Shown: in pieces, positions 7,158 to 32,632 of the stretch
How the letters are laid out: the number at the start of each line of letters is the position of its first letter
How positions within the stretch are numbered: the stretch's first letter is position 1
Origin: Candidatus Sulfotelmatobacter sp.
Lineage (GTDB): Bacteria; Methylomirabilota; Methylomirabilia; Methylomirabilales; DASPOZ01
Length of the DNA: 38,942 bases
Assembly: GCA_035625755.1 (NCBI GenBank)
Contig: DASPOZ010000101.1
Coordinates: 1-38,942 of the forward strand
Direction: 5' to 3'
Notes under the pieces: model-generated
Seen by the model: the letters and a program-made list of their open reading frames with translations, nothing else
Databases searched by the model: none
Told to the model about the DNA's origin: nothing
Position numbers and translations under genes: made by a program

Positions 7158-7236
7158 CCGGCCGCCGAAAAGGGCCGATACCTTTCGCGGCTGCCTCGGC
7201 GACACCGAGTGGGCCGTTGGCGCGCTCGATCCCCAG

Positions 7237-8400: not shown

Positions 8401-8429
8401 AGTGTAGAGGGTTTCTCCTCGCCTGTCAA
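8401..8429 (-). promoter_or_regulatory. Sigma70-like promoter for rpsU (TTGACA-17-TACACT)
   Basis: Hexamers and the 17-nt spacer read directly from the minus strand. The -35 hexamer contains the stop codon (8426-8428) of the upstream moaD-like ORF. Confidence 0.5.
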
Positions 8430-8818
8430 TGGCCGGGCCGGAATCCGGCAGCAACCCCTCCAGCCGGCCCCCGGGCCACGGCGGGGAGCCGGCCGGCCGC
8501 GCCAGCCCCGCCAGCGCTGGCCGGGACGCCACCGCCCTTGCCTGCACCTCCCGCAATGGCGGGAACGATGCTCACCTGGTCCCCCGCCTTCAGCGGCGTC
8601 TGGGCCCCTTGCAGGAACCGGATGTCCTCCTCGTTGACGTAGATGTTGATGAAGCGGCGGAGCTGGCCATGATCGTCACAGAGACGGGCGCGCAGCCCCG
8701 TGTACTGGCCCTCCAGCGCCTCGATCAACTCCGCCACGGATGCAGCGGAGGCCTTCACCTCACCCTGCCCCCCGGTGAGGCCCCGCAGCGGCGTCGGGAT
8801 CCGCACGGTCACGCTCAT
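8426..8818 (-). CDS. MoaD/ThiS/CysO-family sulfur-carrier (Ubl) protein with a 39-aa extension after the Gly-Gly
   Basis: ATG 8818 with AGGGAGGAAAAG upstream. A 91-aa beta-grasp-like domain ends in VPAIAGG (GG codons 8551-8546). The frame continues as [39 protein letters not shown]. Confidence 0.8.
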
Positions 8819-8874: not shown

Positions 8875-10125
8875 TCAACGGGCGGCGGCCAGGACGCCGG
8901 CGGCGGCCAGCGCGCCGTCGAACGACTTGAGGGTGGGCTTGATCTGCAGGGGGGCCGGCAGCGCATCCACCACGGCCTCCTGGGTCTTCAGCCCGTGCCC
9001 CGTGATGCACACGACGAGGCTCTCGTCCCGGGGGATGCGCCCCTGCGCGATGAGGCGCATGGCCGCGGCCAGCGTCACCCCGCCGGCCGTCTCGGCGTAG
9101 ATCCCCTCGGTGGCGGCCAGCAGCTTCATGGCCTCCACGATCTCGGCGTCACTGGCGTGCTCGCCCCAGCCTCCGCTGTCCTTCACCACCTTGTAGGCGT
9201 AGTAGCCGTCGGCCGGGTTGCCGATGGCCAGCGACTTGGCGATGGTCCGGGGCCGCACGGGCCGGATGGTCTCCGAGCCTTCCTTGACCGAATTCACGAT
9301 GGGGCCGCACCCCTCCGCCTGGGCGACGTACATCCGGGTGGGCACGTCCGCGATCAGTTCCAGGGTGCGGAGCTCCTGCAGCCCCTTCCAGATCTTGGTG
9401 ATCAGCGACCCGCCGGCGGCGGGCACCACGATATGCTGCGGGGCGCGCCAGCCGAGCTGCTCGGCGATCTCGTAGCCGAAGGTCTTGGACCCCTCGGCGT
9501 AGTAGGGGCGGATGTTGATGTTCACGAAGGCCCAGCCGTACTTGTCCGCCACCTCGCTGCAGAGCCGATTCACCTCGTCGTAGTTGCCTTCCACCGCCAC
9601 CACGGAAGGGTTGTAGATGGACGTCCCCAGTACCTTGCCCTGCTCCAGGTCCGCCGGGATGAAGACGAAGCTCTTTATCCCGGCCTCGGCGGCGTGGGCC
9701 GCCACGGAGTTCGCCAGGTTGCCGGTGGAGGCGCAGGCCACCACCTGAAATCCCATCTCCAGGGCCCGGGTCACCGCCACGGCCACCACGCGGTCCTTGA
9801 AGGAGAGGGTCGGATGATTGACCGTGTCGTTCTTGAGGTAGAGTTCCCGCACGCCCAGGGCACGGGCCAGGTTTCGGGCCCGGATCAGGGGGGTGAAGCC
9901 GCATGCCCGGCCCACCGCCGCCTCGCCCTCGATGGGCAGCAGGGGGCGATAGCGCCAGATGCTGGGTGGCCCCGCCTCGACGGATCGGCGCGAGACCAGG
10001 CGCCGCAGGGCCTCGTAATCGTAGGCCACCTCCAGCGGCCCGAAGCAGAACTCGCAGACGTGGAGCGCTTTGGCCGGGTACGGCCGCCCACACTCGCGGC
10101 ACTTCAACCCCTTGATCGTTCCCAT
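8875..10125 (-). CDS. Threonine-synthase-family PLP enzyme (ThrC-like; predicted homocysteine-forming MetM-like role)
   Basis: N-terminal zinc ribbon CRECG...CEFC. PLP-lysine motif TLSFKDR. ATG 10125 (alternative ATG 10143). Lies in the SAM-riboswitch operon. Confidence 0.85.
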
Positions 10126-10187
10126 CCTGGATCCTACTCCCATCCCGCGGCCCCCGGCGAGGGGGGCCAGCGGCCTCGCCCCGGGGA

Positions 10188-10421
10188 TTATCCCCGGAGC
10201 TCCTCCACCCGGATCCCCAGCCCCGAGAGGAACGCGATGCCGCGCGCCACCTCGGCCGGATCGCCCTTGAGTTTCACCGTAACCTCGCCCGAGGCCTCGG
10301 TCACCCGGGCCTTGCGGATGTTAGGGACGATCTCGAATTCCTTGCAGAGGCGGTACAGCACCGGCTCCGTGACCAGGGAAGACGGGTAGGTCAGCTTCAC
10401 CGTGCGCGTGACTGCAGCCAT
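10188..10421 (-). CDS. NIL-domain protein (77 aa)
   Basis: ATG 10421 with GGGAGG 7 nt upstream. VKLTYPSSLVTEPVLYRLCKEFEIVPNIRKARV resembles the NIL domain of the MetN C-terminus. The tracked start at 10460 lies inside the riboswitch terminator and is rejected. Confidence 0.75.
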   Translation of the reverse strand: MAAVTRTVKLTYPSSLVTEPVLYRLCKEFEIVPNIRKARVTEASGEVTVKLKGDPAEVARGIAFLSGLGIRVEELRG

Positions 10422-10441
10422 GTGCCGCCTCCCGGGACCAT

Positions 10442-10482
10442 AAAAAAAACCCCTCCTCATCCATAGGCAATGAGAAGGGGTT
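10442..10482 (-). terminator. Riboswitch expression-platform terminator
   Basis: Minus strand reads CCCCTTCTCAT-TGCCTATGG-ATGAGGAGGGG followed by TTTTTTTT. Confidence 0.85.
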
Positions 10483-10500
10483 GCATTGACCCTTATCTTG

Positions 10501-10632
10501 CCTCATCTCTCATCCCGCCGGTACAGCACTACGAAGCGGGATGTAGGAGTTGGCACCGGACCCCCGCCATGCTGGGCGGGGCGGTTGCCGTGGCGTCGTC
10601 GGGCCAGTCCCTCAGCCACTCTGGATGAGTTT
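10501..10632 (-). promoter_or_regulatory. SAM-I (S-box) riboswitch aptamer
   Basis: Minus strand reads CTCATCCAGAGTGGCTGAGGGACTGGCCCGACGACGCCACGGCAACC...GGTGCCAACTCC...GGGATGAGAGATGAG. The P1 strands and the conserved GAGGGA / GGCCC / GCAACC / GGTGCCAA blocks are all present. Confidence 0.9.
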
Positions 10633-13006: not shown

Positions 13007-13054
13007 CCTGCCCTCCCGTTCCCTGTCCCTGGGTCCGATCCGTCGAGCACCTCA

Positions 13055-13183
13055 CAGGGCATTGAAGAACTCTCGCATACCCGGGCTGCTCAAAAAGGTG
13101 CAGATGCAAGGCGCCGCGCGGATTCCGCAATCCGCATTCCGCATTCCGCAATGGAGAGGTGGGCCCTTTCCAGCAGCCTGCTA
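13055..13183 (+). repeat. Palindromic repeat, copy 2 (variant core)
   Basis: The arms are conserved (CCCGGGCTGCTCAAAAAGGTGCAGATGCAAGG ... GGGCCCTTTCCAGCAGCCTG-CTA). The GC-palindromic core is replaced by ATTCCGC-type short tandem repeats at 13121-13150. Confidence 0.8.
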
Positions 13184-14995
13184 CGACGCGCATTCCCCGG
13201 GGCCGGTGTGCACGCCGAAGGCCTCGGTGCCGCCCCAGTCGAGGTAGGCATCCGGCGCCTGGGCGTGCGCCGGGAGCTCGGTCAGATCCCTGACCGCCTC
13301 CCGGATCCTGGCCAATCCGAGGCGATCCACGAACGCCTCGAACGTTTCCCCGCCCCGCCGCTCCGCCCGGTAGAGGTCCAGCAGGCGGCCCACTAGGGCC
13401 GGGGCGTTCTTCGCCGGTACCTTCAGCGCGGGGCGCGCGTACCGCGTCCCCTCCAGACTGAGGGATGCGCCCAGGAAGACCTGGTAGGTCGGCACCTGCT
13501 TCCCGTCGAACACCTTCGACCCGCCGGAGAAGCCGATGCCGGCGATGTGATGGTGGCCGCAGGAGTTCGGGCAGCCCGAGATCTTGATCCGGATCCCCGC
13601 CTCGTCGGCCACATAGGCGTGGCCGTTCCGGCAAATGTCGCCGATGGCCGCCGCCAGGCCGCGCGACGAGGTGATCCCGAGCTGGCAGGTATCGGCGCCG
13701 GGGCAGGCGGTGACGTCCGCCAGGCGGTCGGCCGAGGGCGCGGCCAGGCCCGCCCCCTTGAGCAGGCGATACACCGGCGGCAGCTTGGCGCCGGGGATCC
13801 AGCGCAGGAGGATGTTCTGCTGGTTCGTCGTCCGGAGCCACCCGTCACCGAACTGGCGGGCGAGGAAGGCAAGGACCCGGAGTTGCGGGCCCGTCACGTC
13901 GCCCAGAACCAGGCGCGCGTTGACCATGAAATAGCCCCGCTGCTTCTGCGGCCGCACGTTCGTGGCCCACCATCGACCGGATTCGGGGTCGCCGTTCGGC
14001 ACGGCGGCCAGGTCCGCCGGCGACGGAGCGCGCCGCGACGCCTCCGGCGGGACATCGATGGACGGGATCCTCCCGGCCAGCACCCCGCGCAGGCCTTCGC
14101 GCTCCCCCAGGACGAGGGCGCGGAACGCCTCCATCCCGAGCTTCCGGACGACGAACTTCAGGCGGGCCAGATTGCGGTTGTCCCGATTGCCGAGCCGATC
14201 GAACACGCGCACGATGGCCGCGATGGTGACCAGCAAGTCCTCGGCCGGCGTGAAGTCCTCCAGGGGCTGCGCCACCTGGGGCGATGGGCCGAGACCGCCG
14301 CCGACATAGAGGCGGAACCCCCGCAGCCCTTCCGCGCCTTGGTGGCGCAGCGCCGCCACCGCGCCGATATCCTGGATGGGCGCGAGCCCGCAGAGGTCCC
14401 GGCACCCCGAGAAGCTGATCTTGAATTTCCGGGGCAGGTTCTGGTTCATCGGATTGCGCAGGAGGAAGCGGGCCGTGGCCTCCGCGTAGGGCGTAACGTC
14501 GAAGGGCTCGTCGGGCGCCACGCCGGCGTGGGGGCAGGCCACCACGTTGCGGACGGTGTTCCCGCAGGCCTCGCGCGTGGTGAGGCCCACCTCGGCCAGG
14601 CGCGTGAGCGTCGGCGTCAGTTCCTCCGGCTTCACGAAGTGGAACTGGATGTTCTGGCGCGTCGTGACGTGGCCCACCCCCCGCGGCGCCGCCTCGGCCA
14701 GCTCGGCCAGGCGCTCGACCTGCTTCGCCGTGAGGCCGCCCCAGGGGATCTTCACCCGCACCATGTGCACCCCCTCCTGCCGCTGGCCATAGACGCCATG
14801 CTGCAGGCGGAAGCGCTTGAACTCGTCCGGCGTGATCTCGCCGCGCCAGAAGCGATGAACGAACCGGTCGAAGGTATCGATCTCGCCGGCGTCCGCCCAG
14901 GATTCCGGCTCGTGCACGGCCTGCCCGGGGAGTTCCTCGGCGTCCGGGATGTGAAGGTGGGGTCGCCTCGTCTCGGTCGTCACCTCGTCGTTCAT
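13181..14995 (-). CDS. sir: Ferredoxin-dependent sulfite reductase (siroheme/[4Fe-4S] hemoprotein)
   Basis: ATG 14995 with GGAGGG upstream. Duplicated nitrite/sulfite-reductase half-domains. Cys cluster TACPGADTC ... SGCPNSCGHH. Confidence 0.9.
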   Translation of the reverse strand: MNDEVTTETRRPHLHIPDAEELPGQAVHEPESWADAGEIDTFDRFVHRFWRGEITPDEFKRFRLQHGVYGQRQEGVHMVRVKIPWGGLTAKQVERLAELAEAAPRGVGHVTTRQNIQFHFVKPEELTPTLTRLAEVGLTTREACGNTVRNVVACPHAGVAPDEPFDVTPYAEATARFLLRNPMNQNLPRKFKISFSGCRDLCGLAPIQDIGAVAALRHQGAEGLRGFRLYVGGGLGPSPQVAQPLEDFTPAEDLLVTIAAIVRVFDRLGNRDNRNLARLKFVVRKLGMEAFRALVLGEREGLRGVLAGRIPSIDVPPEASRRAPSPADLAAVPNGDPESGRWWATNVRPQKQRGYFMVNARLVLGDVTGPQLRVLAFLARQFGDGWLRTTNQQNILLRWIPGAKLPPVYRLLKGAGLAAPSADRLADVTACPGADTCQLGITSSRGLAAAIGDICRNGHAYVADEAGIRIKISGCPNSCGHHHIAGIGFSGGSKVFDGKQVPTYQVFLGASLSLEGTRYARPALKVPAKNAPALVGRLLDLYRAERRGGETFEAFVDRLGLARIREAVRDLTELPAHAQAPDAYLDWGGTEAFGVHTGPGECAS

Positions 14996-15007
14996 GGTCC
15001 CTCCAAG

Positions 15008-15040
15008 AAAAAAGGCCAACCCGCTCTCTGCGGATTGGCC
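15008..15040 (-). promoter_or_regulatory. Terminator-like hairpin immediately upstream of the sir RBS (possible attenuator)
   Basis: Minus strand reads GGCCAATCCGC-AGAGA-GCGGGTTGGCC followed by TTTTTT, then CTTGGAGGGACCATG. Confidence 0.55.
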
Positions 15041-15303
15041 TCCAGTTGACTGGTCAGCCTGTTATCGGCGGCGGGGGCTACACGGGCCCGACCACCGCGC
15101 AGCACATGGCGGCATCCATGTGCCCCGCACGATTGCTCCGAATCTCCCTCGGGTTACCGGACATTTGGCGCCAAAAAAAACCTTTCCAGCCTGAGCGACA
15201 CCACATGCCCATCGTGCGACATCCCCCTCTCATCAAGGCAACGGCACCCTTTTCCAAGTGTTGCGCGCCATCCGCTTCGCGACCCGCCCGGCGTCTCCAC
15301 ACC

Positions 15304-15582
15304 TCAGGCCTTGGGCAGGAACAGCTCGTAGAACCGCCTGGGGCGGATGGCCTCAAGGCAGTTCGCCACAGCCTCCTCCACCGTATCGCCAGTCTTGCTG
15401 AACTCCGGCCTCGTCACCAGCTCCGCATGCTCGGGCCGCGCCGTGCAGCGCGGGGTCTCGGGTGGCACCGGGCCCAGGGCCTCTTCCACCAGCAGTTCGA
15501 TGCTGCTCTGGCCGCATCCCATCGCCTTCCAGAAGCGAAACCGGTGAACGCGCAGCAGCCGTTCACCCTGGCGCAGCTCCAT
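15304..15582 (-). CDS. Hypothetical protein with weak HicB/UPF0150-like C-terminal half
   Basis: ATG 15582. ...RPEFSKTGDTVEEAVANCLEAI resembles the PGC..G.T.EEA..N..EAI signature only loosely. Confidence 0.3.
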   Translation of the reverse strand: MELRQGERLLRVHRFRFWKAMGCGQSSIELLVEEALGPVPPETPRCTARPEHAELVTRPEFSKTGDTVEEAVANCLEAIRPRRFYELFLPKA

Positions 15583-15596
15583 GACACCTCGCTCAA

Positions 15597-15751
15597 CAGG
15601 CTGCTGAAAAACCTTCTCTTGCCCAGGCTGCTCAAAAAGGTCCAGATGCAAGGCGGCGCGCGATGCGCCGAGTGAGGCGTACTTCTGGTACGCCGCAGCG
15701 AATGCGCGAGCGCGCCAACGCCGCAGATGGGCCTTTTTCAGCAGCCTGCTA
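15597..15751 (+). repeat. Palindromic repeat, copy 3 (short form)
   Basis: CAGGCTGCTGAAAAACC-TTCTCTTGCC-CAGGCTGCTCAAAAAGGTCCAGATGCAAGGCGGCGCGCGATGCG...GCGCGAGCGCGCCAACGCCGCAGATGGGCCTTTTTCAGCAGCCTG-CTA. Confidence 0.9.
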
Positions 15752-16597
15752 CGGCTTTTCCACGGGCACGCCCACCAGGCTCCCGTACTCGGTCCAGGAT
15801 CCGTCGTAGTTGCGGACCCTGGGATAGCCCAGGAGCTCCTTCAGGGCGAACCATGTGAGCGAGGAGCGCTCACCGATCCGGCAGTAGGCCACCACCTCCT
15901 TGTCGGGCGTGACCCCCTTGCCCGCGTAGAGGCTCTTGAGCTCGTCCGCCGACTTGAAGGTGCCGTCGGGGCGGCAGTTCTCGCCCCAGGGGATGTTCGC
16001 CGCGCCGGGCACGTGGCCGCCCCGCTGCGCCCCCTCCTGGGGCAGGTTCTCGGGGGCCAGCAATTCGCCGCTGAACTCGCGGGGCGAGCGCACATCCACC
16101 AAGGCGCGGTTCCGCCTGAAGGCCGTCTCCACCACCAGGTCCCGGGCGGCGCGGACGGAAGGATCGGGGTCCTTGGCGCTGTAGCGCACGGGGGCGATCT
16201 TGGTGGCCTCCTTGGTCAGCGCGCGGCCCTCGTCGATCCATTTCTTCCGGCCGCCGTTCATGATCTGCGCGTCGGAGTGGCCGTAATGCTTCAGCAGCCA
16301 GTAGGCGTACGTGGCGAACCAGTTATTGTTATCCCCGTAGAGGATGACCTTGGTATTGGTGCCCACCCCCGCCTGGCCCAGGAGCTGCTCGATCTTGGCC
16401 TTGCTGGCGATATCGCGCACGGGGTGCTCCTCCAGGTCCCGGAACCAGTTCAAGGCTACCGCCCCGGGGATGTGGCCCTGCTCGAAGGCGGCGGTATCCA
16501 CGGAGACCTCGATGACGCGAAGGTTCGGGTCCTTCAGATGGTCCGCCACCCATGCCGTCTCCACGAGCACCTGAGGGTTCGCGTACGCCGTCGCCAT
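15749..16597 (-). CDS. Thiosulfate/3-mercaptopyruvate sulfurtransferase (tandem rhodanese)
   Basis: ATG 16597 with AAGGGAGGGGG upstream. Two rhodanese domains. Active-site loop CRIGERSS. Confidence 0.9.
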   Translation of the reverse strand: MATAYANPQVLVETAWVADHLKDPNLRVIEVSVDTAAFEQGHIPGAVALNWFRDLEEHPVRDIASKAKIEQLLGQAGVGTNTKVILYGDNNNWFATYAYWLLKHYGHSDAQIMNGGRKKWIDEGRALTKEATKIAPVRYSAKDPDPSVRAARDLVVETAFRRNRALVDVRSPREFSGELLAPENLPQEGAQRGGHVPGAANIPWGENCRPDGTFKSADELKSLYAGKGVTPDKEVVAYCRIGERSSLTWFALKELLGYPRVRNYDGSWTEYGSLVGVPVEKP

Positions 16598-16641
16598 GGC
16601 CCCCTCCCTTCGTCCGGTCGGCTCGGACCGGACCACCGAAT

Positions 16642-16830
16642 CTACGCCAGTCGCACCTTCTCCGTGGTGTCGATCTGCACCACCCGCGAGTCCTGGATGA
16701 TGATCTGCACTTGCCCGTGACGGACGGACCGGATGGCCTCCACGATGCGCCGCAGCACCTCGCGGTCCTCGGCCCCCTCGCCGGGCGCCGGGCCCGGGGC
16801 ACCGAGATTCGCGGGCCTCTGGAGTTTCAT
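16642..16830 (-). CDS. YezD/DUF2292-family small protein
   Basis: ATG 16830 with GGGGGAG upstream. HGQVQIIIQDSRVVQIDTTEKVRL matches the family signature as recalled. Confidence 0.7.
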   Translation of the reverse strand: MKLQRPANLGAPGPAPGEGAEDREVLRRIVEAIRSVRHGQVQIIIQDSRVVQIDTTEKVRLA

Positions 16831-16855
16831 GGGCTCCCCCCCGGCCCCCGCGGGC

Positions 16856-17344
16856 TCAGGATCCGTCCGCCCCCGCGATGGGGGCCTCCAGGAATTCCCC
16901 GGCCGCCTCATCCCAGCGGAACGCCCTCACCTCGCGGACCGCCGCCGCGTCCAGGGCCACGATCAGGTAGGCCGTGTCGGGGTAGACCGGCTCGCCGTCG
17001 AACAGGGCGCGGTCCCTGTCCTCCTGGGAGAAGTAGGCTGCGTGGTCCGGGTGCGAGTGGTAGAACGCGGCCACGGCCCACCCGTCCCGGTCCACCTCGT
17101 TGAGCACGTCCAGCAGCTCCTTGCCGTCCATGTAGTAGGCGATGCGGGCGACCCGGGGATACCGCTCCGGGTCCCGCGCGTGCAGCTGGTCCTGGATGTT
17201 GCGCACGCGGCGCACCGCCTCGGCGCCGTCCCGCCGCAGGATCAGGCCGCAGCACTCGTCCGGATAGGTCTCGCGGGCGTGCGCCGCCACGGCCTCCAGC
17301 GTGGAGGTCCGGAATCGCACCGCCGTCTGCGCGCCTGTGGTCAT
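16856..17344 (-). CDS. JAMM/MPN+ metallopeptidase (Mec+/CysO-hydrolase-like)
   Basis: Catalytic Glu in PDECCG. JAMM motif HSHPDHAAYFSQED (H-x-H-x7-S-x2-D). An alternative GTG start at 17362 overlaps the cysM stop. Confidence 0.85.
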   Translation of the reverse strand: MTTGAQTAVRFRTSTLEAVAAHARETYPDECCGLILRRDGAEAVRRVRNIQDQLHARDPERYPRVARIAYYMDGKELLDVLNEVDRDGWAVAAFYHSHPDHAAYFSQEDRDRALFDGEPVYPDTAYLIVALDAAAVREVRAFRWDEAAGEFLEAPIAGADGS

Positions 17345-17355
17345 GTCCCGTCCCG

Positions 17356-18288
17356 CTACCACCAGATGTGACTGGCCACGTCCTCCGGGATGTCCGCGGT
17401 GTCCTTCTGCCAGACGCCGAGGCTCACGTACTTCCAGCCGCCGTCCGCCAGCAGGACCACGATGTTGCCCCGATCCATGCGGCGGGCCACCCGCAGGGCG
17501 CAGTGCAAGGCCGCGCCGGACGAGACGCCGGCGAAGATCCCCTCCCGGCGCATCAGATCCTTGGTGGCGGCGAACGCGCAGCGTGAGTCCACGAGGATCT
17601 TGCCGTCCAGGAGGCCCAGGTCCAGGATGGGCGGAATGAACCCCTCCTCCAGGCTCCGAAGCCCCTGCACCGCGTCCCCCGGGTGCGGCTCCGCGGCGAT
17701 GACCTTCACCCGCGGGTTATGCTCCTTGAGCCGACGGCCCACGCCCATGAGCGTGCCGCCGGTCCCCAGCCCTGCGATGAAGGCGTCTACCTCCGGCATA
17801 TCCCGCACGATCTCGGCCCCGGTGGTCTCGTAGTGGGCCCGGGGGTTGGCCGGGTTGCCATACTGGTACAGCAGGCAGAAGCGGGGGTCCTCCGCCATCT
17901 TCTGGGCCAGCTCGATGGAGCCGTTGGTCCCCCGGGCCGGGTCCGAGAAAACGATCTCGGCCCCATAGAGGTCCAAGAGCTGCCGCCGTTCCACCGTGAC
18001 GTTCTCGGGCACCACCACCGTGATCCGGTAGCCTCTCCGCCGGGCGATCATGGCCAGGGCGATCCCCGTGTTGCCGCTGGTGGGCTCCAGGATGGTCTTC
18101 TCCCGCGTGAGCTCGCCCGACCGCTCGGCGGCCTCGATCATGGACCTGGCGATGCGGTCCTTGAGGCTGCCCGTGGGGTTGTTCCCCTCGAGCTTGGCGA
18201 AGAGACGCACCCCGGGCTTGGGGCTGAACCGCGGCAGCTCCACCAGCGGGGTGTTCCCGACGGCCTCCAGGATGTCCCGAGCGATCAT
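17356..18288 (-). CDS. cysM: Cysteine synthase B-type PLP enzyme (CysM-like)
   Basis: NPTGSLKDR PLP-lysine motif and TSGNTG. GAGGGAACGGC precedes ATG 18288. Confidence 0.9.
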   Translation of the reverse strand: MIARDILEAVGNTPLVELPRFSPKPGVRLFAKLEGNNPTGSLKDRIARSMIEAAERSGELTREKTILEPTSGNTGIALAMIARRRGYRITVVVPENVTVERRQLLDLYGAEIVFSDPARGTNGSIELAQKMAEDPRFCLLYQYGNPANPRAHYETTGAEIVRDMPEVDAFIAGLGTGGTLMGVGRRLKEHNPRVKVIAAEPHPGDAVQGLRSLEEGFIPPILDLGLLDGKILVDSRCAFAATKDLMRREGIFAGVSSGAALHCALRVARRMDRGNIVVLLADGGWKYVSLGVWQKDTADIPEDVASHIWW

Positions 18289-18396: not shown

Positions 18397-19494
18397 CTAC
18401 CCCTCCGGGACCCCGGCCGCCGCCGGGATGCCACAGAACTGGTTGTAGTCGATCAGGTCCGTGATGGTGGGCCGGTCGCCGCAGACCGGACAGTTCGGAT
18501 CTCGGCGGAGCTTTACCTGGCGGAACTCCATCCCCAGGGCATCGAAGAACAGCAGCCGGCCGGCCAGGGATTCCCCTAGGCCCAGGAGGAGTTTGATGGT
18601 CTCGATCCCCTGGATGGAGGCGATGATGCCGCACAGCACGCCCAGCACGCCGGCCTCCGCGCAGCTGGGTACCAGGCCGGCCGGCGGCGGCGCCGGGTAG
18701 AGGCACCGATAGCAGCCCAGCCCCGGCTTGAACACGGTGACCTGTCCCTCGAACTTGAAGATGCTGCCGTCCACCAGGGGCTTCTGCAGGAACACCGCGG
18801 CATCGTTTGCCAGGTAGCGGGTGGGGAAGTTGTCCGATCCGTTCACGATCACGTCGTACTCGGCGAAGATCTGCTTCGCGTTCGCCGAGGACAGCTGCGT
18901 GGCGTAGGGCACCACCTTCACGTCCGGGTTCATGTCCGCAATGGTGTCGATGGCCGAATCCACCTTGGGGCGCCCCACGTCGTGGGTGTGGTGGAGGATC
19001 TGGCGCTGGAGGTTGCTGAGGTCCACCTTGTCGAAGTCCACGATGCCCAGGGTGCCCACGCCGGCCGCCGCCAGGTAGAGGGCCGCCGGAGACCCCAGGC
19101 CCCCCGCGCCGATGATCAGCACCCGGCTGCCCAGCAGCCTCTTCTGGCCGCGCCCGCCCACCTCCGGCAGGATGATGTGGCGGCTATAGCGCCGGATCTG
19201 CTCCTCGGTCATGGCGCCCGCGCCGCCGGCCAGGGCGGGGATCAGGGCCACCTCGTCGCCGTCCCGCACGGTGGCCTCGAGGCCGCCCAACTCCTCCACG
19301 GCCAGGTTGTTCACGTAGACGTTCACGTGGTGCAGGATCTCGCCGCGTCCGTCCAGCACGCGGCCGCGCAGGCCGGGGTAGCGCCCCTCCAGTTCGCGCA
19401 GGACGCCGGCCACCGTGGCCTGCCCCGCCTCCACCCGGGCCTGATTGTCCGTGAATTGGCGGTAGGGCGTCGGAATGTACACCGTGATACTCAT
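18397..19494 (-). CDS. Translational fusion of a MoaD/CysO-like Ubl domain (aa 1-91, ...ALAGG) with a MoeB/ThiF-type E1 adenylyltransferase (aa 95-365)
   Basis: The reading frame across the junction is GCC GGC GGC GCG GGC GCC ATG ACC, with no stop. E1 part: MTEEQIRRYSRHIIL, GAGGLGSP Rossmann motif, CYRC and CPVC zinc pairs. No C-terminal rhodanese domain. Confidence 0.85.
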   Translation of the reverse strand: MSITVYIPTPYRQFTDNQARVEAGQATVAGVLRELEGRYPGLRGRVLDGRGEILHHVNVYVNNLAVEELGGLEATVRDGDEVALIPALAGGAGAMTEEQIRRYSRHIILPEVGGRGQKRLLGSRVLIIGAGGLGSPAALYLAAAGVGTLGIVDFDKVDLSNLQRQILHHTHDVGRPKVDSAIDTIADMNPDVKVVPYATQLSSANAKQIFAEYDVIVNGSDNFPTRYLANDAAVFLQKPLVDGSIFKFEGQVTVFKPGLGCYRCLYPAPPPAGLVPSCAEAGVLGVLCGIIASIQGIETIKLLLGLGESLAGRLLFFDALGMEFRQVKLRRDPNCPVCGDRPTITDLIDYNQFCGIPAAAGVPEG

Positions 19495-19521
19495 CGCTGG
19501 GGTTCCTCCCCCGCCCCCGCT

Positions 19522-19567: not shown

Positions 19568-20482
19568 TCAGATGGTCTCGCGCAGGTAGCGTTCGCCGGT
19601 GTCCGGCAGCATGGTGACCACGGTGCGGCCGGGGCCGAGGCGCGCCCCCACCTGCAGGGCGGCCACCACGTTGGCCCCGGCGGAGACGCCCACCAGGAGG
19701 CCCTCCTCCCGTGCCAGCCGGCCGGCCATGGCCCTGGCGTCCGCGTCGTGGACGCCGATGATCTCGTCCAGCAGGGACCGATCCAGCACGCCGGGGACGA
19801 AGCTGGCCCCGATCCCCTGGATCCCGTGGGGCCGGAAGCGCCCGCCCTGGAGCACTGGCGACGCGGCCGGCTCCACGGCCACGATCCGCACCCCGCGGAC
19901 CTCGCGGCGGAGCACCTCCGCCACCCCGGTGATGGTCCCCCCGGTGCCCACGCCGGCCACGAAGGCGTCCACCTCGCCGCCGGTGGCCTTCAGGATCTCC
20001 TGGGCCGTGGTGCGCCGGTGCGCGTCCGGGTTGGCCGGGTTCTCGAACTGCTGCGGCATGAAGTAGGCCGGGTTCTTTCGCACCAGCTCCTGGGCCGCGA
20101 AGACGGCCCCGGTCATCCCTTCGATGGCCGGGGTGAGGACCACCTCGGCCCCGTACCGCTTGAGGAGGGCGCACCGTTCCGGGCTCATGTCCTCGGGCAT
20201 GGTGAGGATCAGACGGTAGCCCTTCACGGCGGCCACCATGGCCAGCCCCACGCCCGTATTGCCGGAGGTGGGCTCCACGATGGTGGCGCCGGGCTGGAGC
20301 CGCCCCGCCCGTTCCGCCTCCTCCACCATGGCCAGGGCGATCCGGTCCTTCACGCTGCCGGCTGGGTTCAGGGACTCGAGCTTCGCCAGGACGCGCGCGC
20401 CCCCCGGCGGGACCGCGCGGCGCAGGCGCACCAGGGGCGTGTCCCCGATGAGGTCGAGCACCGAATCCGTGATGCCACGCAT
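19568..20482 (-). CDS. cysK: Cysteine synthase A (O-acetylserine sulfhydrylase)
   Basis: ATG 20482 ([20 protein letters not shown]). NPAGSVKDR and TSGNTG. The tracked N-terminal 32 aa derive from repeat copy 4 and are rejected. Confidence 0.9.
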
Positions 20483-20508
20483 GCTGCGCCCCGCCCCGCC
20501 CGGCAGCT

Positions 20509-20661
20509 TAGCAGGCTGCTGAAAAAGGCCCATCTGCGGCGTTGGCGCGCTCGCGCGGCGCTGCGACGTACGGACCAAGTACGCCTCGCGCCTCGCCGCG
20601 CGCGCCGCCTTGCATCTGGACCTTTTTAAGCAGCCTGCGCAAAATGTTCGGCATCCTGTTA
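20509..20661 (-). repeat. Palindromic repeat, copy 4 (short form, reverse orientation)
   Basis: TAGCAGGCTGCTGAAAAAGGCCCATCTGCGGCGTTGGCGCGCTCGCGC...GCCTTGCATCTGGACCTTTTTAAGCAGCCTG...CATCCTG-TTA. Sits between the Rrf2 stop and the cysK start. Confidence 0.9.
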
Positions 20662-21108
20662 GATCTGGTAGGTCACCCGCCCCGCCCCCTGCTTCGCGCG
20701 AAGGCGCTGGCTGATGTCTTCCAGCGTGGTGGTGTCCACCACCTTGCCCACGGCGTCCCGCACTTCGGCCCAGAGGTCCTGCAGGGCGCAGAAGCCCTCC
20801 TTGGGGCAGAGCTCCCGCTGGCCATCCGTCACACAGAAGATGGGCGCGACGGGACCGTCCACCGCGCGGAGCACCTCCCCAATGGTGATCTCGTGGGGCG
20901 GCTTCGCCAGGTAGTAGCCGCCGTTGACGCCGCGCCTGCTTCGCAGGAAGCCGGCTCGTTTGAGCATGAGGAGGACCTGCTCGAGGTAACGCACCGGGAG
21001 CCCCTGGCGCCGGGCGATCCCCTCGATCTGGACGGGGCCCTGGTCATAATGCATCGCCAGGTCCTGAAGGGCTCGGGTTGCGTAATCAGCCTTTGTTGAC
21101 ACAAGCAT
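20659..21108 (-). CDS. Rrf2-family transcriptional regulator (IscR/CymR-like, three-Cys cluster site)
   Basis: [14 protein letters not shown] wHTH N-terminus. C-x7-C-x5-C in [17 protein letters not shown]. The SD sequence is weak. Confidence 0.85.
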
Positions 21109-21149
21109 ATAATACTCGTTAAAGTCGATAAGGTTAGTCGACAATTGGT

Positions 21150-26720: not shown

Positions 26721-27253
26721 CGAGGAAACCGCAGGTGGGGATCGTGATGGGGTCCGACTCGGACCTGGAGGTGATGCGGGAGGCAGCCGTGGCGCTGGAG
26801 GGATTCGGCATCCCCCACGAGGTGCGCGTCTGCTCGGCGCACCGCTCGCCCCGGCTCGCGTTGCGCTACGCGCGGGATGCGGAGGCGCGCGGCCTCAAGG
26901 TCCTCATCGCCGGCGCCGGGTGGGCGGCCCACCTGGCGGGCGTCCTGGCGGCCGCCACCACGCTGCCCGTGATCGGGGTGCCCATCGAGTCCAGCCCGCT
27001 GCGGGGCCTGGACGCCCTGCTCTCCACGGCGCAGATGCCGGGCGGGGTCCCGGTGGCCACCATGTCCCTGGGGCGGGCGGGGGCGCGCAACGCGGGCGTC
27101 CTGGCGGCCCAGATCCTGGCCACGGCCGATGGGGATCTGCGGGCCCGGCTCCGCGCCTATAAGGCCCGCCTCGCCGCCGAGGTCGCCGCCCGGGACCGGC
27201 GGGTGCGCGCCGGTGTGTCCCCCCGCCGCGGGCGAGCCCGCGCGAAGGCCTAG
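26717..27253 (+). CDS. purE: N5-carboxyaminoimidazole ribonucleotide mutase
   Basis: ATGA overlap with the purD stop. VGIVMGSDSD and AGWAAHLAGV. The stop TAG at 27251-53 is the first triplet of repeat copy 5. Confidence 0.9.
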   Translation: MTRKPQVGIVMGSDSDLEVMREAAVALEGFGIPHEVRVCSAHRSPRLALRYARDAEARGLKVLIAGAGWAAHLAGVLAAATTLPVIGVPIESSPLRGLDALLSTAQMPGGVPVATMSLGRAGARNAGVLAAQILATADGDLRARLRAYKARLAAEVAARDRRVRAGVSPRRGRARAKA

Positions 27254-27441
27254 CAGGTTGGTCGAAAACACGCTCTTGCCCAGGCTGCTCAAAACGGCCC
27301 AGGTGCAGGGCGGCGCGCGATGCGCCGACTGAGGCGTACGTCGGTTACGTCCCGGGGAGTGCGCGAGCGCGCCAACGCCGCACCCGCTGCCGCCCTGACG
27401 GCAGAGGGAAGAGATGCCGGGGCATTTTCAGCAGCCTGCTA
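27251..27441 (+). repeat. Palindromic repeat, copy 5 (long form)
   Basis: TAG-CAGGTTGGTCGAAAACAC-GCTCTTGCC-CAGGCTGCTCAAAACGGCCCAGGTGCAGGGCGGCGCGCGATGCG...GCGCGAGCGCGCCAACGCC...CTGCCGCCCTGACGGCAG...GGGGCATTTTCAGCAGCCTG-CTA. Confidence 0.9.
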
Positions 27442-27451
27442 GCGGCCGGGC

Positions 27452-31258: not shown

Positions 31259-31416
31259 TAACAGGCCGCTGAGAAGGCCCATCTGCGGCGTTGGCGCGCT
31301 CGCGCGACGCTGCGACGTACGACCCCAGTACGCCTCGCGCCTCGCATCGCGCGCCGCCTTGCATTTGGACCTTTTTGAGCAGCCTGGGCCGAAACCAGTT
31401 TTTCAGTATCCTGCTA
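31259..31416 (-). repeat. Palindromic repeat, copy 6 (short form, reverse orientation)
   Basis: TAA-CAGGCCGCTGAGAAGGCCCATCTGCGGCGTTGGCGCGCTCGCGC...GCCTTGCATTTGGACCTTTTTGAGCAGCCTGGGCC..TTTTTCAGTATCCTG-CTA. Confidence 0.9.
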
Positions 31417-31666
31417 AGGACCTATCCCAAAACCCTTCAGTGACCCGTGACGGGGGCCAGCCCCGGCCCCGTCCTCGGCGCTCCGCGGGCCCATCATCTC
31501 CTGCTGGAGGGCCTTCCCCAGCAGGCTGGGGCCCCGGCGCAATCGGATGGGCACAACCGTCGCGCGCCCGCGCGCGGCGGGACGCGATGGGCTCACGCCT
31601 GCAGGCGGCACCAGGGCATGACCCCCTAAGCGCTCGGAGGTCGAGGTTTTGGGATAGGCCCTAAGG
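31414..31666. mobile_element. Candidate second MITE: 14-bp perfect terminal inverted repeats flanked by a CTAAGG direct repeat
   Basis: CTAAGG-A-CCTATCCCAAAACC (31421-34) ... GGTTTTGGGATAGG (31645-58)-CC-CTAAGG (31661-66). The ~210 bp interior is non-coding with internal hairpin CCTGCTGG..CCAGCAGG. Single copy in this window. Confidence 0.5.
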
Positions 31667-32433: not shown

Positions 32434-32615
32434 TGAGAGCCTGTGAAAAGATCCTTCAGGCTGCTGAAAAAGGCCCAGGTGCAAGGCGGCGCGCGATGCG
32501 AGGTGCGAGGCGTACTCGGTCCGTACGTCGCAGCGCCGCGCGAGCGCGCCAACGCCCCACCCGCTACCGCCGAGGCAGCGGGGAGGAACGGTGGGCCTTT
32601 TTCAGCAGCCTGTTA
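32434..32615 (+). repeat. Palindromic repeat, copy 7 (long form)
   Basis: TGA-GAGCCTGTGAAAAGATCC-TTCAGGCTGCTGAAAAAGGCCCAGGTGCAAGGCGGCGCGCGATGCGAGGTGCGAGGCGTAC..GTACGTCGCAGCGCCGCGCGAGCGCGCCAACGCC...GGGCCTTTTTCAGCAGCCTG-TTA. Confidence 0.9.
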
Positions 32616-32632
32616 GGGGAAGGAGCAGCGCC

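Follow-up and report, generated by a model that had tools for sequence, protein, structure and literature searches.

We analysed a 38,942-nucleotide (nt) stretch of DNA, hereafter the window (contig DASPOZ010000101.1 of Candidatus Sulfotelmatobacter sp., assembly GCA_035625755.1), in which a CysO-like sulfur carrier and a MoeB/MoeZ-type E1 adenylyltransferase are encoded as a single chain. The fused open reading frame (ORF) lies at 18397..19494 on the (-) strand, as do all the other genes of the window described below. It begins with an ATG, runs uninterrupted for 365 amino acids (aa) and has a GGAGG Shine-Dalgarno sequence (19505..19509) 10 nt 5' of the start codon. Alignment to structurally solved relatives and an AlphaFold2 model place a ubiquitin-like (Ubl) beta-grasp domain of the ThiS/MoaD type at residues 1-91 (19222..19494), ending in IPALAGG, and the E1 domain, delimited by homology to MoeB, a structural match and invariant columns, occupies residues 96-365 (18397..19209). 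The two are joined by the linker Ala92-Gly93-Ala94-Met95 (AGAM, 19210..19221), and the junction codons GCC GGC GGC GCG GGC GCC ATG ACC (A89 G90 G91 A92 G93 A94 M95 T96) are free of stops, with 274 residues encoded past Gly91. The codons of Gly90-Gly91 (19222..19227), which are invariant in alignments of relatives, mark the predicted site of both cleavage, after Gly91, and activation. A preliminary description of this DNA had reported the fusion without a stop at the Gly-Gly as well as an internal ATG at 19212-19210, and we find the ORF, the junction codons and the coordinates as it gave them.

Domain searches recognised both halves of the chain: aa 5-91 match ThiS (PF02597, E = 9.5e-14), and aa 103-337 match ThiF (PF00899, E = 5.5e-83). 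The NCBIfam models MoeB, MoeZ and UbaA match over aa 85-360 only, and the MoeZ model is covered only at positions 5-277 of 392, the rhodanese domain being missing from the window E1. Residues 1-91 align end to end, terminal GG included, with solved CysO-type carriers, the best of which are 4n6e_B (E = 8e-17) and M. tuberculosis CysO (3dwg_C, E = 1e-15). The E1 part matches E. coli MoeB (1jw9_B, E = 9e-61), with aa 95-339 falling onto MoeB 4-248, and contains the RYSRH Arg-finger helix, in which Arg105 aligns with MoeB Arg14, a GAGGLGS ATP loop, the catalytic-type Cys278 and two CxxC pairs (261/264 and 335/338). In the AlphaFold2 model both domains are confident; the predicted local distance difference test score (pLDDT) is 83-94 across the Ubl domain and falls below 50 at residues 88-93 (LAGGAG), consistent with a flexible, possibly exposed tail in the model. 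A Foldseek search of the PDB with this model gave a template-modelling (TM) score of 0.92 to MoeB and ThiF, and its matches span the E1 part only, with no solved fused Ubl-E1 chain among them. The C-terminus of the E1 (aa 340-365, 18397-18480) holds a conserved DYxxFCG stretch, with Tyr350, Phe353 and Cys354 unchanged across 63 sequences. The rhodanese domain comes next in MoeZ-type proteins, and in the window E1 nothing comes after the stretch; the invariant Cys354 might be a persulfide acceptor from a separate rhodanese.

The fusion is real and old. The best 120 matches among 5.8 billion clustered proteins all carry ThiS and ThiF in one chain (361-384 aa, down to 66% identity) and stem from independent JGI, ENA, NCBI and Logan assemblies; the named ones are Methylomirabilales/NC10 metagenome-assembled genomes (MAGs) at 72-76% identity. 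We also scanned one genome per GTDB species and ranked the loci by similarity to the fused query. Carrier and E1 form a single ORF in 31 of the best 80 loci so ranked, a proportion that is not a frequency, and four metagenomic loci bring the fused set to 35. The 31 species-level loci come from Dehalococcoidia and other Chloroflexota, Gemmatimonadota, many Acidobacteriota, Verrucomicrobiia, Elusimicrobia and Eisenbacteria, and they include two Firmicutes-labelled MAGs and three Thermoplasmata archaea. The clade of the window is fused throughout, and after clustering at 50% identity the fusion is seen in about 15 of the top 150 representatives.

Gly-Gly closes the Ubl domain in 174 of 174 fused sequences and is invariant in both alignments (A1 and A2). 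The residue that follows it is small (A 121, S 27, T 11, V 9), and the linker varies from about 3 to 34 residues, so that 9-39 residues separate the Gly-Gly from the RYxRH motif of the E1, a distance that an inserted rhodanese domain raises to about 130. Judged by this pattern, the junction looks like a processing site. Any Met between the Gly-Gly and the E1 motif is found in only 30 of 167 fused relatives, and the position of the window Met is mostly occupied by Phe; the internal ATG of the window is thus a local accident rather than a conserved second start.

Split relatives have the carrier gene immediately upstream of the E1 gene, and it often ends in GG plus 1-12 residues (GGC, GGD, GGMY or GGAGNKRAR before the stop). 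Some of these pairs overlap. In locus L050 the carrier ends in GGHV with the ATG of the E1 gene inside, and its sister locus L014 reads GG-SVGLEAPPVTLSKEEILRYSRH in a single frame; read from such pairs, a one-base insertion or deletion is what switches a locus between the fused and the split state. In a neighbour-joining tree of the E1 domain, fused forms are intermingled with split ones among close relatives; the tree is rough and without support values, and only its close fused/split sister pairs are relied on. In the M. tuberculosis pathway, JAMM peptidases of the Mec type hydrolyse the carrier-Gly-Gly-Cys peptide bond, between Gly and Cys, in every catalytic cycle. Since such enzymes already cut behind a carrier Gly-Gly, the sequence past it would be tolerated and nearly free to vary, and we therefore infer that the stop codon between the carrier and E1 genes is under weak selection, the two genes fusing and splitting repeatedly. 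The normal reaction of the JAMM, by making this sequence nearly neutral, would give an evolutionary account of how fusions come and go. Three loci from Anaerolineae and Caldilineaceae (L036, L043 and L055) have split carrier-E1 pairs in which the carrier ends in GGR, GGQE and GGQ, respectively, before the stop. No JAMM was found within 5 kb of their E1 genes, the span screened, and about 390 nt with an open stretch of 129-142 aa lie ahead of the E1 homology; a different N-terminal E1 extension may be present, or the trimming enzyme may be encoded elsewhere.

The candidate for the cutting enzyme is a JAMM/MPN+ metallopeptidase encoded by the second gene downstream of the fusion. It spans 16856..17362 from a GTG start, and reaches 17344, the end given in the preliminary description, when read from the first ATG. 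The protein matches Prok-JAB (E = 2.5e-19), with a weak desampylase match, and its motif is intact, E...HSHPDHAAYFSQED (HxHx7SxxD). It is Mec-like and is predicted to act as both the maturase of the fusion and the cysteine-releasing hydrolase.

The JAMM is linked to the carrier across related loci. We built a hidden Markov model (HMM) from the JAMM hits, all 48 of which keep HxHx7SxxD, and scored its presence within 3 kb of the E1 gene. A JAMM was found in 31 of the 35 fused loci and in 14 of 22 split but adjacent carrier-E1 pairs, and in none of 24 E1 loci that lack a nearby carrier (fused versus E1-only, Fisher p = 9e-13). A CysM/K gene adjoins most fused loci, and the arrangement seen most often is CysM-JAMM-[carrier~E1]; in the window and the NC10 genomes the order is CysK-[carrier~E1]-...-CysM-JAMM.

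The most direct support for the JAMM link comes from longer chains. P0246 and P0247 read ThiS-ThiF-Rhodanese, P0249 reads ThiS-Rhodanese-ThiF, and two further chains include the peptidase itself, P0260 as JAB-ThiS-Rhodanese-ThiF (634 aa) and P0334 as JAB-Ubl-ThiF-Rhodanese (619 aa). The Ubl domain ends in Gly-Gly in the four chains that we read for this feature (P0246, P0249, P0260 and P0334), and the JAB motif is intact in both JAB-containing chains. On this architecture P0260 and P0334 would be self-processing, uniting peptidase, carrier, sulfurtransferase and E1 in one chain.

In the window, the fusion stands in a sulfur-assimilation cluster with the same-strand order Rrf2, CysK, fusion, CysM, JAMM, DUF2292/OscA-like, tandem rhodanese and sulfite reductase. 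Domain searches identify the gene heading the cluster as an Rrf2-family regulator (CymR/IscR-like, 20659..21144), and a CysK-type cysteine synthase lies directly upstream of the fusion (19568..20578; TIGR01139, 423 bits). The Rrf2-PALP-fusion order is also found in loci L001 and L002. A CysM-type pyridoxal phosphate (PLP)-dependent sulfhydrylase (17356..18288) begins 108 nt downstream of the fusion. Among solved structures it is closest to the O-phosphoserine sulfhydrylase CysM of M. tuberculosis (3dki, 3dwg; E = 5e-92), ahead of the next cysteine synthase at 4e-73, and by this similarity it is the predicted user of the carrier thiocarboxylate. Past the JAMM, domain searches identify a small DUF2292/OscA-like protein (16642..16911, start uncertain, with the domain in the last 37 aa), a two-domain rhodanese of the SseA/3-MST-like kind (15749..16636) and a sulfite/nitrite reductase hemoprotein of the NirA/Sir type (13181..15019). 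The tandem rhodanese is a candidate persulfide donor in place of the missing E1 rhodanese domain. Neither thi genes nor an adjacent solo carrier occur among the neighbours of the fusion (CysK, CysM, JAMM, rhodanese and sulfite reductase). An HMM search of the window for other carrier domains returned only a second carrier at 8426-8818, and the cysteine operon therefore has no solo CysO. By sequence comparison, this operon has the gene set of the CysO/CysM/Mec pathway, its carrier being joined to the E1.

The second carrier (8426..8818) is CysO-like and 44% identical to the fused one. A tail of 39 aa extends beyond its Gly-Gly (aa 90-91). It belongs to an operon with a NIL-domain protein (10188-10460) and a ThrC-like PLP enzyme with an N-terminal zinc ribbon (8875..10143), which NCBIfam names threonine synthase, and the operon is headed by an S-adenosylmethionine (SAM) riboswitch (10500..10631; RF00162, 79.2 bits, E = 3e-17) on the same strand. 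The ThrC-like enzyme is probably a homocysteine synthase of the MetM type that draws on the second carrier, and the riboswitch-headed operon fits the MetM/MetO homocysteine route. Mec is said in a preprint (bioRxiv 10.1101/2024.10.14.618325, citing Hasebe 2024) to be needed for MetO maturation. Both carrier systems occur in one cluster in locus L085, with a single fused E1 and a single JAB, and in the window one JAMM and one E1 probably serve both blocked carriers.

The tail of the second carrier consists of three degenerate 13-residue units, each repeating the C-terminal VPAIAGG motif. Tandem Repeats Finder reported no 39-nt repeat in this tail, whose units are too degenerate at the DNA level, the repeat being clear only in protein homologues. 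Among 118 such homologues (P0125-P0244), tails range from 0 to 50 aa and are at least 10 residues long in 58. One or two further clean PxxxGG motifs are present in 32 of the 118, and the step from one motif to the next is exactly 13 residues in 35 of 37 cases; P0147, for example, reads IAGG, then TGDAGGVPAIAGG, then L, and P0131 has two full units. These units may be multiple JAMM cut sites or a pro-sequence. We found no description of the repeated tail in literature searches that were not aimed specifically at it. Three of the homologues (P0139, P0140 and P0148; 190-192 aa) carry two tandem carrier domains, each ending in Gly-Gly, in a head-to-tail arrangement like that of polyubiquitin.

The analysis shows that the chain is fused, that the fusion is conserved, that its Gly-Gly never varies, which genes make up the operon and that a JAMM is linked to it. 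From this we propose that the fused ORF is translated into a polyprotein precursor for thiocarboxylate-dependent cysteine synthesis of the CysO/CysM/Mec type and that the JAMM of the operon cuts it after Gly91. We put the probability of this reading at roughly 75%; that the chain is cut, which protease cuts it, where the sulfur comes from and how the pathway chemistry runs are drawn from homology and precedent. The 365-aa chain would be translated from its own strong ribosome-binding site, and the JAMM (16856-17362) would cut the peptide bond after Gly91 to free a carrier of 91 aa with a C-terminal Gly-Gly and an E1 of 274 aa that begins AGAM-TEEQ. Such endoproteolysis would be needed because activation requires a free Gly carboxylate. 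The released E1, as a dimer, would adenylate the carboxylate of Gly91, and a persulfide would turn the adenylated glycine into a thiocarboxylate. Since the window E1 has no rhodanese domain, the donor would probably be the stand-alone tandem rhodanese (15749-16636). The M. tuberculosis-type CysM would add the thiocarboxylate to its aminoacrylate intermediate, and an S-to-N acyl shift would yield carrier-Gly-Gly-Cys, from which the same JAMM would release cysteine by hydrolysis. The same E1 and JAMM would probably also serve the second, tail-blocked carrier for homocysteine synthesis. The preliminary description had held that cleavage is needed and that this JAMM is the likely maturase; comparative evidence now favours both points (174/174 Gly-Gly, 31/35 versus 0/24 loci, JAB-containing polyproteins), which fall short of proof.

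Iyer, Burroughs and Aravind described Ubl domains fused to the N-terminus of ThiF in 2006, together with operons of ThiS/MoaD, E1, JAB and cysteine synthase, and suggested that fused ThiS/MoaD is released by JAB peptidases (PMC1779556). Makarova and Koonin reported in 2010 that Ubl-E1 fusions are common to archaea and bacteria (PMC2948915). M. tuberculosis MoaX, a MoaD-MoaE fusion, is cut between Gly82 and Ser83, its activity requires this cleavage, and a G81A substitution prevents the cut (PMC4326299). In D. radiodurans the JAMM DR0402 acts on the MoaD-MoaE fusion DR2607 and leaves a C-terminal Gly, according to the account of Yang 2018 given in PMC8832034, and HvJAMM1 of H. volcanii cleaves linear SAMP1-MoaE (PMC4443979). 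The preliminary description had held that known bacterial cases lose only one or two residues, on the premise that the present case lacks a bacterial precedent. The statement is wrong and the premise unsupported, since MoaX and the DR0402 substrate are whole-protein fusions and both Ubl-ThiF fusions and the JAB-mediated release of fused ThiS/MoaD have been discussed since 2006. Our full-text literature searches found no experimental study of a carrier-E1 fusion. The window gene is thus an uncharacterised member of an already described type of system, and its novelty is modest.

Compared with the CysO/CysM/Mec system of M. tuberculosis (Rv1335, Rv1336 and Rv1334) and its MoeZ, the window shares a CysO-like carrier, an M. 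tuberculosis-type CysM, an operon JAMM, a MoeB/MoeZ-type E1 and a sulfur-assimilation context. It differs in that the carrier forms one chain with the E1, leaving the Gly-Gly internal, and in that the E1 lacks the MoeZ rhodanese domain, a separate tandem rhodanese being present in the operon. The window E1 is also encoded inside the operon, whereas that of M. tuberculosis lies elsewhere, and the gene order differs. The MoaD-MoaE fusions (MoaX, DR2607 and SAMP1-MoaE) resemble the window gene in that a carrier is joined through Gly-Gly to a whole folded partner enzyme, cleavage past the Gly-Gly is needed for function, and a JAMM/MPN+ enzyme is the shown or likely protease. Their partner is a sulfur-accepting synthase subunit of the molybdopterin pathway, while in the window it is the activating E1, in a cysteine pathway. 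The carriers QbsE and HcyS have one or two extra C-terminal residues, which are trimmed by the JAMM enzymes QbsD and HcyD encoded in their clusters. Comparable short extensions (GGC, GGD, GGMY) are seen in the split relatives of the window gene, in which the extension is instead a 274-aa enzyme. Ubiquitin precursors, namely polyubiquitin and ubiquitin-ribosomal protein fusions, are likewise beta-grasp fusions cut after Gly-Gly, and deubiquitinases include a JAMM class. The resemblance is no more than an analogy, as the window product is a sulfur carrier for amino-acid biosynthesis, with no E2/E3 and no evidence of protein conjugation.

Several points weigh against cleavage by the operon JAMM. 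The model comes solely from sequence and gene context. The linker of the window has only four residues before the first E1 helix, fewer than in most other phyla, and access of the peptidase is assumed. It is the carrier system as such that the JAMM accompanies, as the 14 of 22 split pairs show, and the association is not specific to the fused state; furthermore, 4 of the 35 fused loci lack a JAMM in the available flank, among them L001, with 8 kb on each side. Finally, the protease that cuts mycobacterial MoaX is described as unidentified (PMC4326299), so that JAMM enzymes are not the sole candidate class.

Some of these points favour a reading that we consider unlikely, in which the Ubl is never removed and serves as a permanent N-terminal domain of the E1 in a regulatory, scaffolding or docking role, with the working carrier being a separate protein such as that at 8426-8818. 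The very short linker and the JAMM-less locus L001 agree with it, and Iyer et al. proposed such a non-carrier role for the Ubl-ThiF proteins of Campylobacter and of Gram-positives with a low GC content (PMC1779556), which, like the Ubl-E1-TBP proteins of Thaumarchaeota (PMC2948915), have an N-terminal beta-grasp domain fused to an E1. The Campylobacter-type Ubl, however, is described as divergent, distinct from ThiS, and encoded in thiamine operons beside a solo ThiS (PMC1779556), whereas the window domain is a bona fide CysO-type ThiS with the invariant Gly-Gly, in a cysteine operon with a JAMM. A substitute carrier is indeed present in the window, but it is itself tail-blocked and sits in the SAM-riboswitch methionine operon, and most fused loci have no other carrier nearby. 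A permanent domain also fits poorly with a Gly-Gly placed exactly at the domain end in every fused sequence though the linker beyond it varies freely, and with close relatives in which a separate gene for this domain occupies the equivalent place in the operon.

It is also improbable, in our estimate, that the precursor is cut after Gly91 by another protease or by autocatalysis, with the JAMM only freeing cysteine from the carrier-Cys adduct. The known role of Mec in the CysO cycle would explain the JAMM association equally well, and both the MoaX protease and the four fused loci without a nearby JAMM leave room for a different enzyme. On the other side, the JAMM enzymes DR0402 and HvJAMM1 do cleave linear carrier fusions, and the bond to be cut in the fusion is chemically the same Gly-Gly-Xaa bond that Mec-type enzymes hydrolyse. 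In addition, P0260 and P0334 place a JAB domain in one chain with an internal Gly-Gly carrier, and no other peptidase is conserved in the fused loci.

Separate production of the E1 from the internal ATG (19212-19210), with the long form as a minor or non-functional read-through product, is very unlikely; the preliminary description had judged it unlikely as well. The in-frame ATG stands exactly where E1 homology begins, but a reading of the junction reveals no Shine-Dalgarno sequence ahead of it comparable to the GGAGG of the fusion start, the Met is replaced in most relatives, and internal initiation would give no free carrier because there is no stop after the Gly-Gly. That the fusion arose as an error of sequencing or assembly, through loss of a stop codon or through an indel between neighbouring genes, is hardly credible; the preliminary description had raised an artefact for the case that orthologs are all split. 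The data are mostly MAGs, and the genes of some relatives overlap by a few bases, so that a single-base error could fuse them, but the frame-continuous architecture is shared by all 120 nearest clusters from independent assemblies and by 35 loci with differing linkers, and the clade of the window is uniformly fused.

Within the proposed cleavage by the JAMM, a more speculative extension is that the fusion acts as a two-way zymogen lock, in which the carrier has no free carboxylate and the E1 is possibly held inactive as well until the JAMM cuts after Gly91. The reason to consider it is that the Arg-finger helix (Arg105) starts a few residues past the tethered beta-grasp domain, and we hold it as a tentative idea of low probability. 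If true, the JAMM would gate the whole thiocarboxylate route post-translationally, including both the cysteine branch and the SAM-riboswitch methionine branch, and a deubiquitinase-like protease would serve as a switch that regulates sulfur assimilation across many uncultured phyla, beyond housekeeping trimming.

The accepted picture of CysO/JAMM-type systems is unchanged by these findings. If the precursor reading holds, a large share of environmental bacteria and some archaea make their CysO-type carrier as a polyprotein, fused to the E1 alone, to the E1 and a rhodanese, or to both and a JAMM. Annotation names such genes plain MoeB and misses the carrier, and pathway predictors of the GapMind type would score the carrier as absent. 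The fusion also offers a testable substrate for a bacterial JAMM endopeptidase acting on a carrier-E1 precursor, an idea that dates from 2006.

As E1 and JAB domains also occur in anti-phage systems (CBASS Cap2/Cap3, Bil and 6A-MBL), we considered such an assignment and rejected it. PADLOC gave only partial Rossmann-core matches to E1-E2 models (at most 70 bits over about 100 aa) and no match for the window JAMM or either carrier, and the gene context is sulfur assimilation. Between the sulfite reductase and rhodanese genes, about 730 nt (15020-15748) contain no convincing gene and no Rfam match, and part of this interval is a copy of a repeat element. This intergenic element of about 130-190 nt is present in both orientations at 565-757, 7168-7228, 13054-13185, 15592-15753, 20509-20642, 27251-27445, 31274-31418 and 32457-32619, with 76-100% identity between copies, and it looks like a repetitive extragenic palindromic (REP) element or a miniature inverted-repeat transposable element (MITE). 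Its copies stand between the operon units of the sulfur island. One of them reaches the TTG listed as the start of cysK, which runs into the element, and the true cysK start is probably near 20482.

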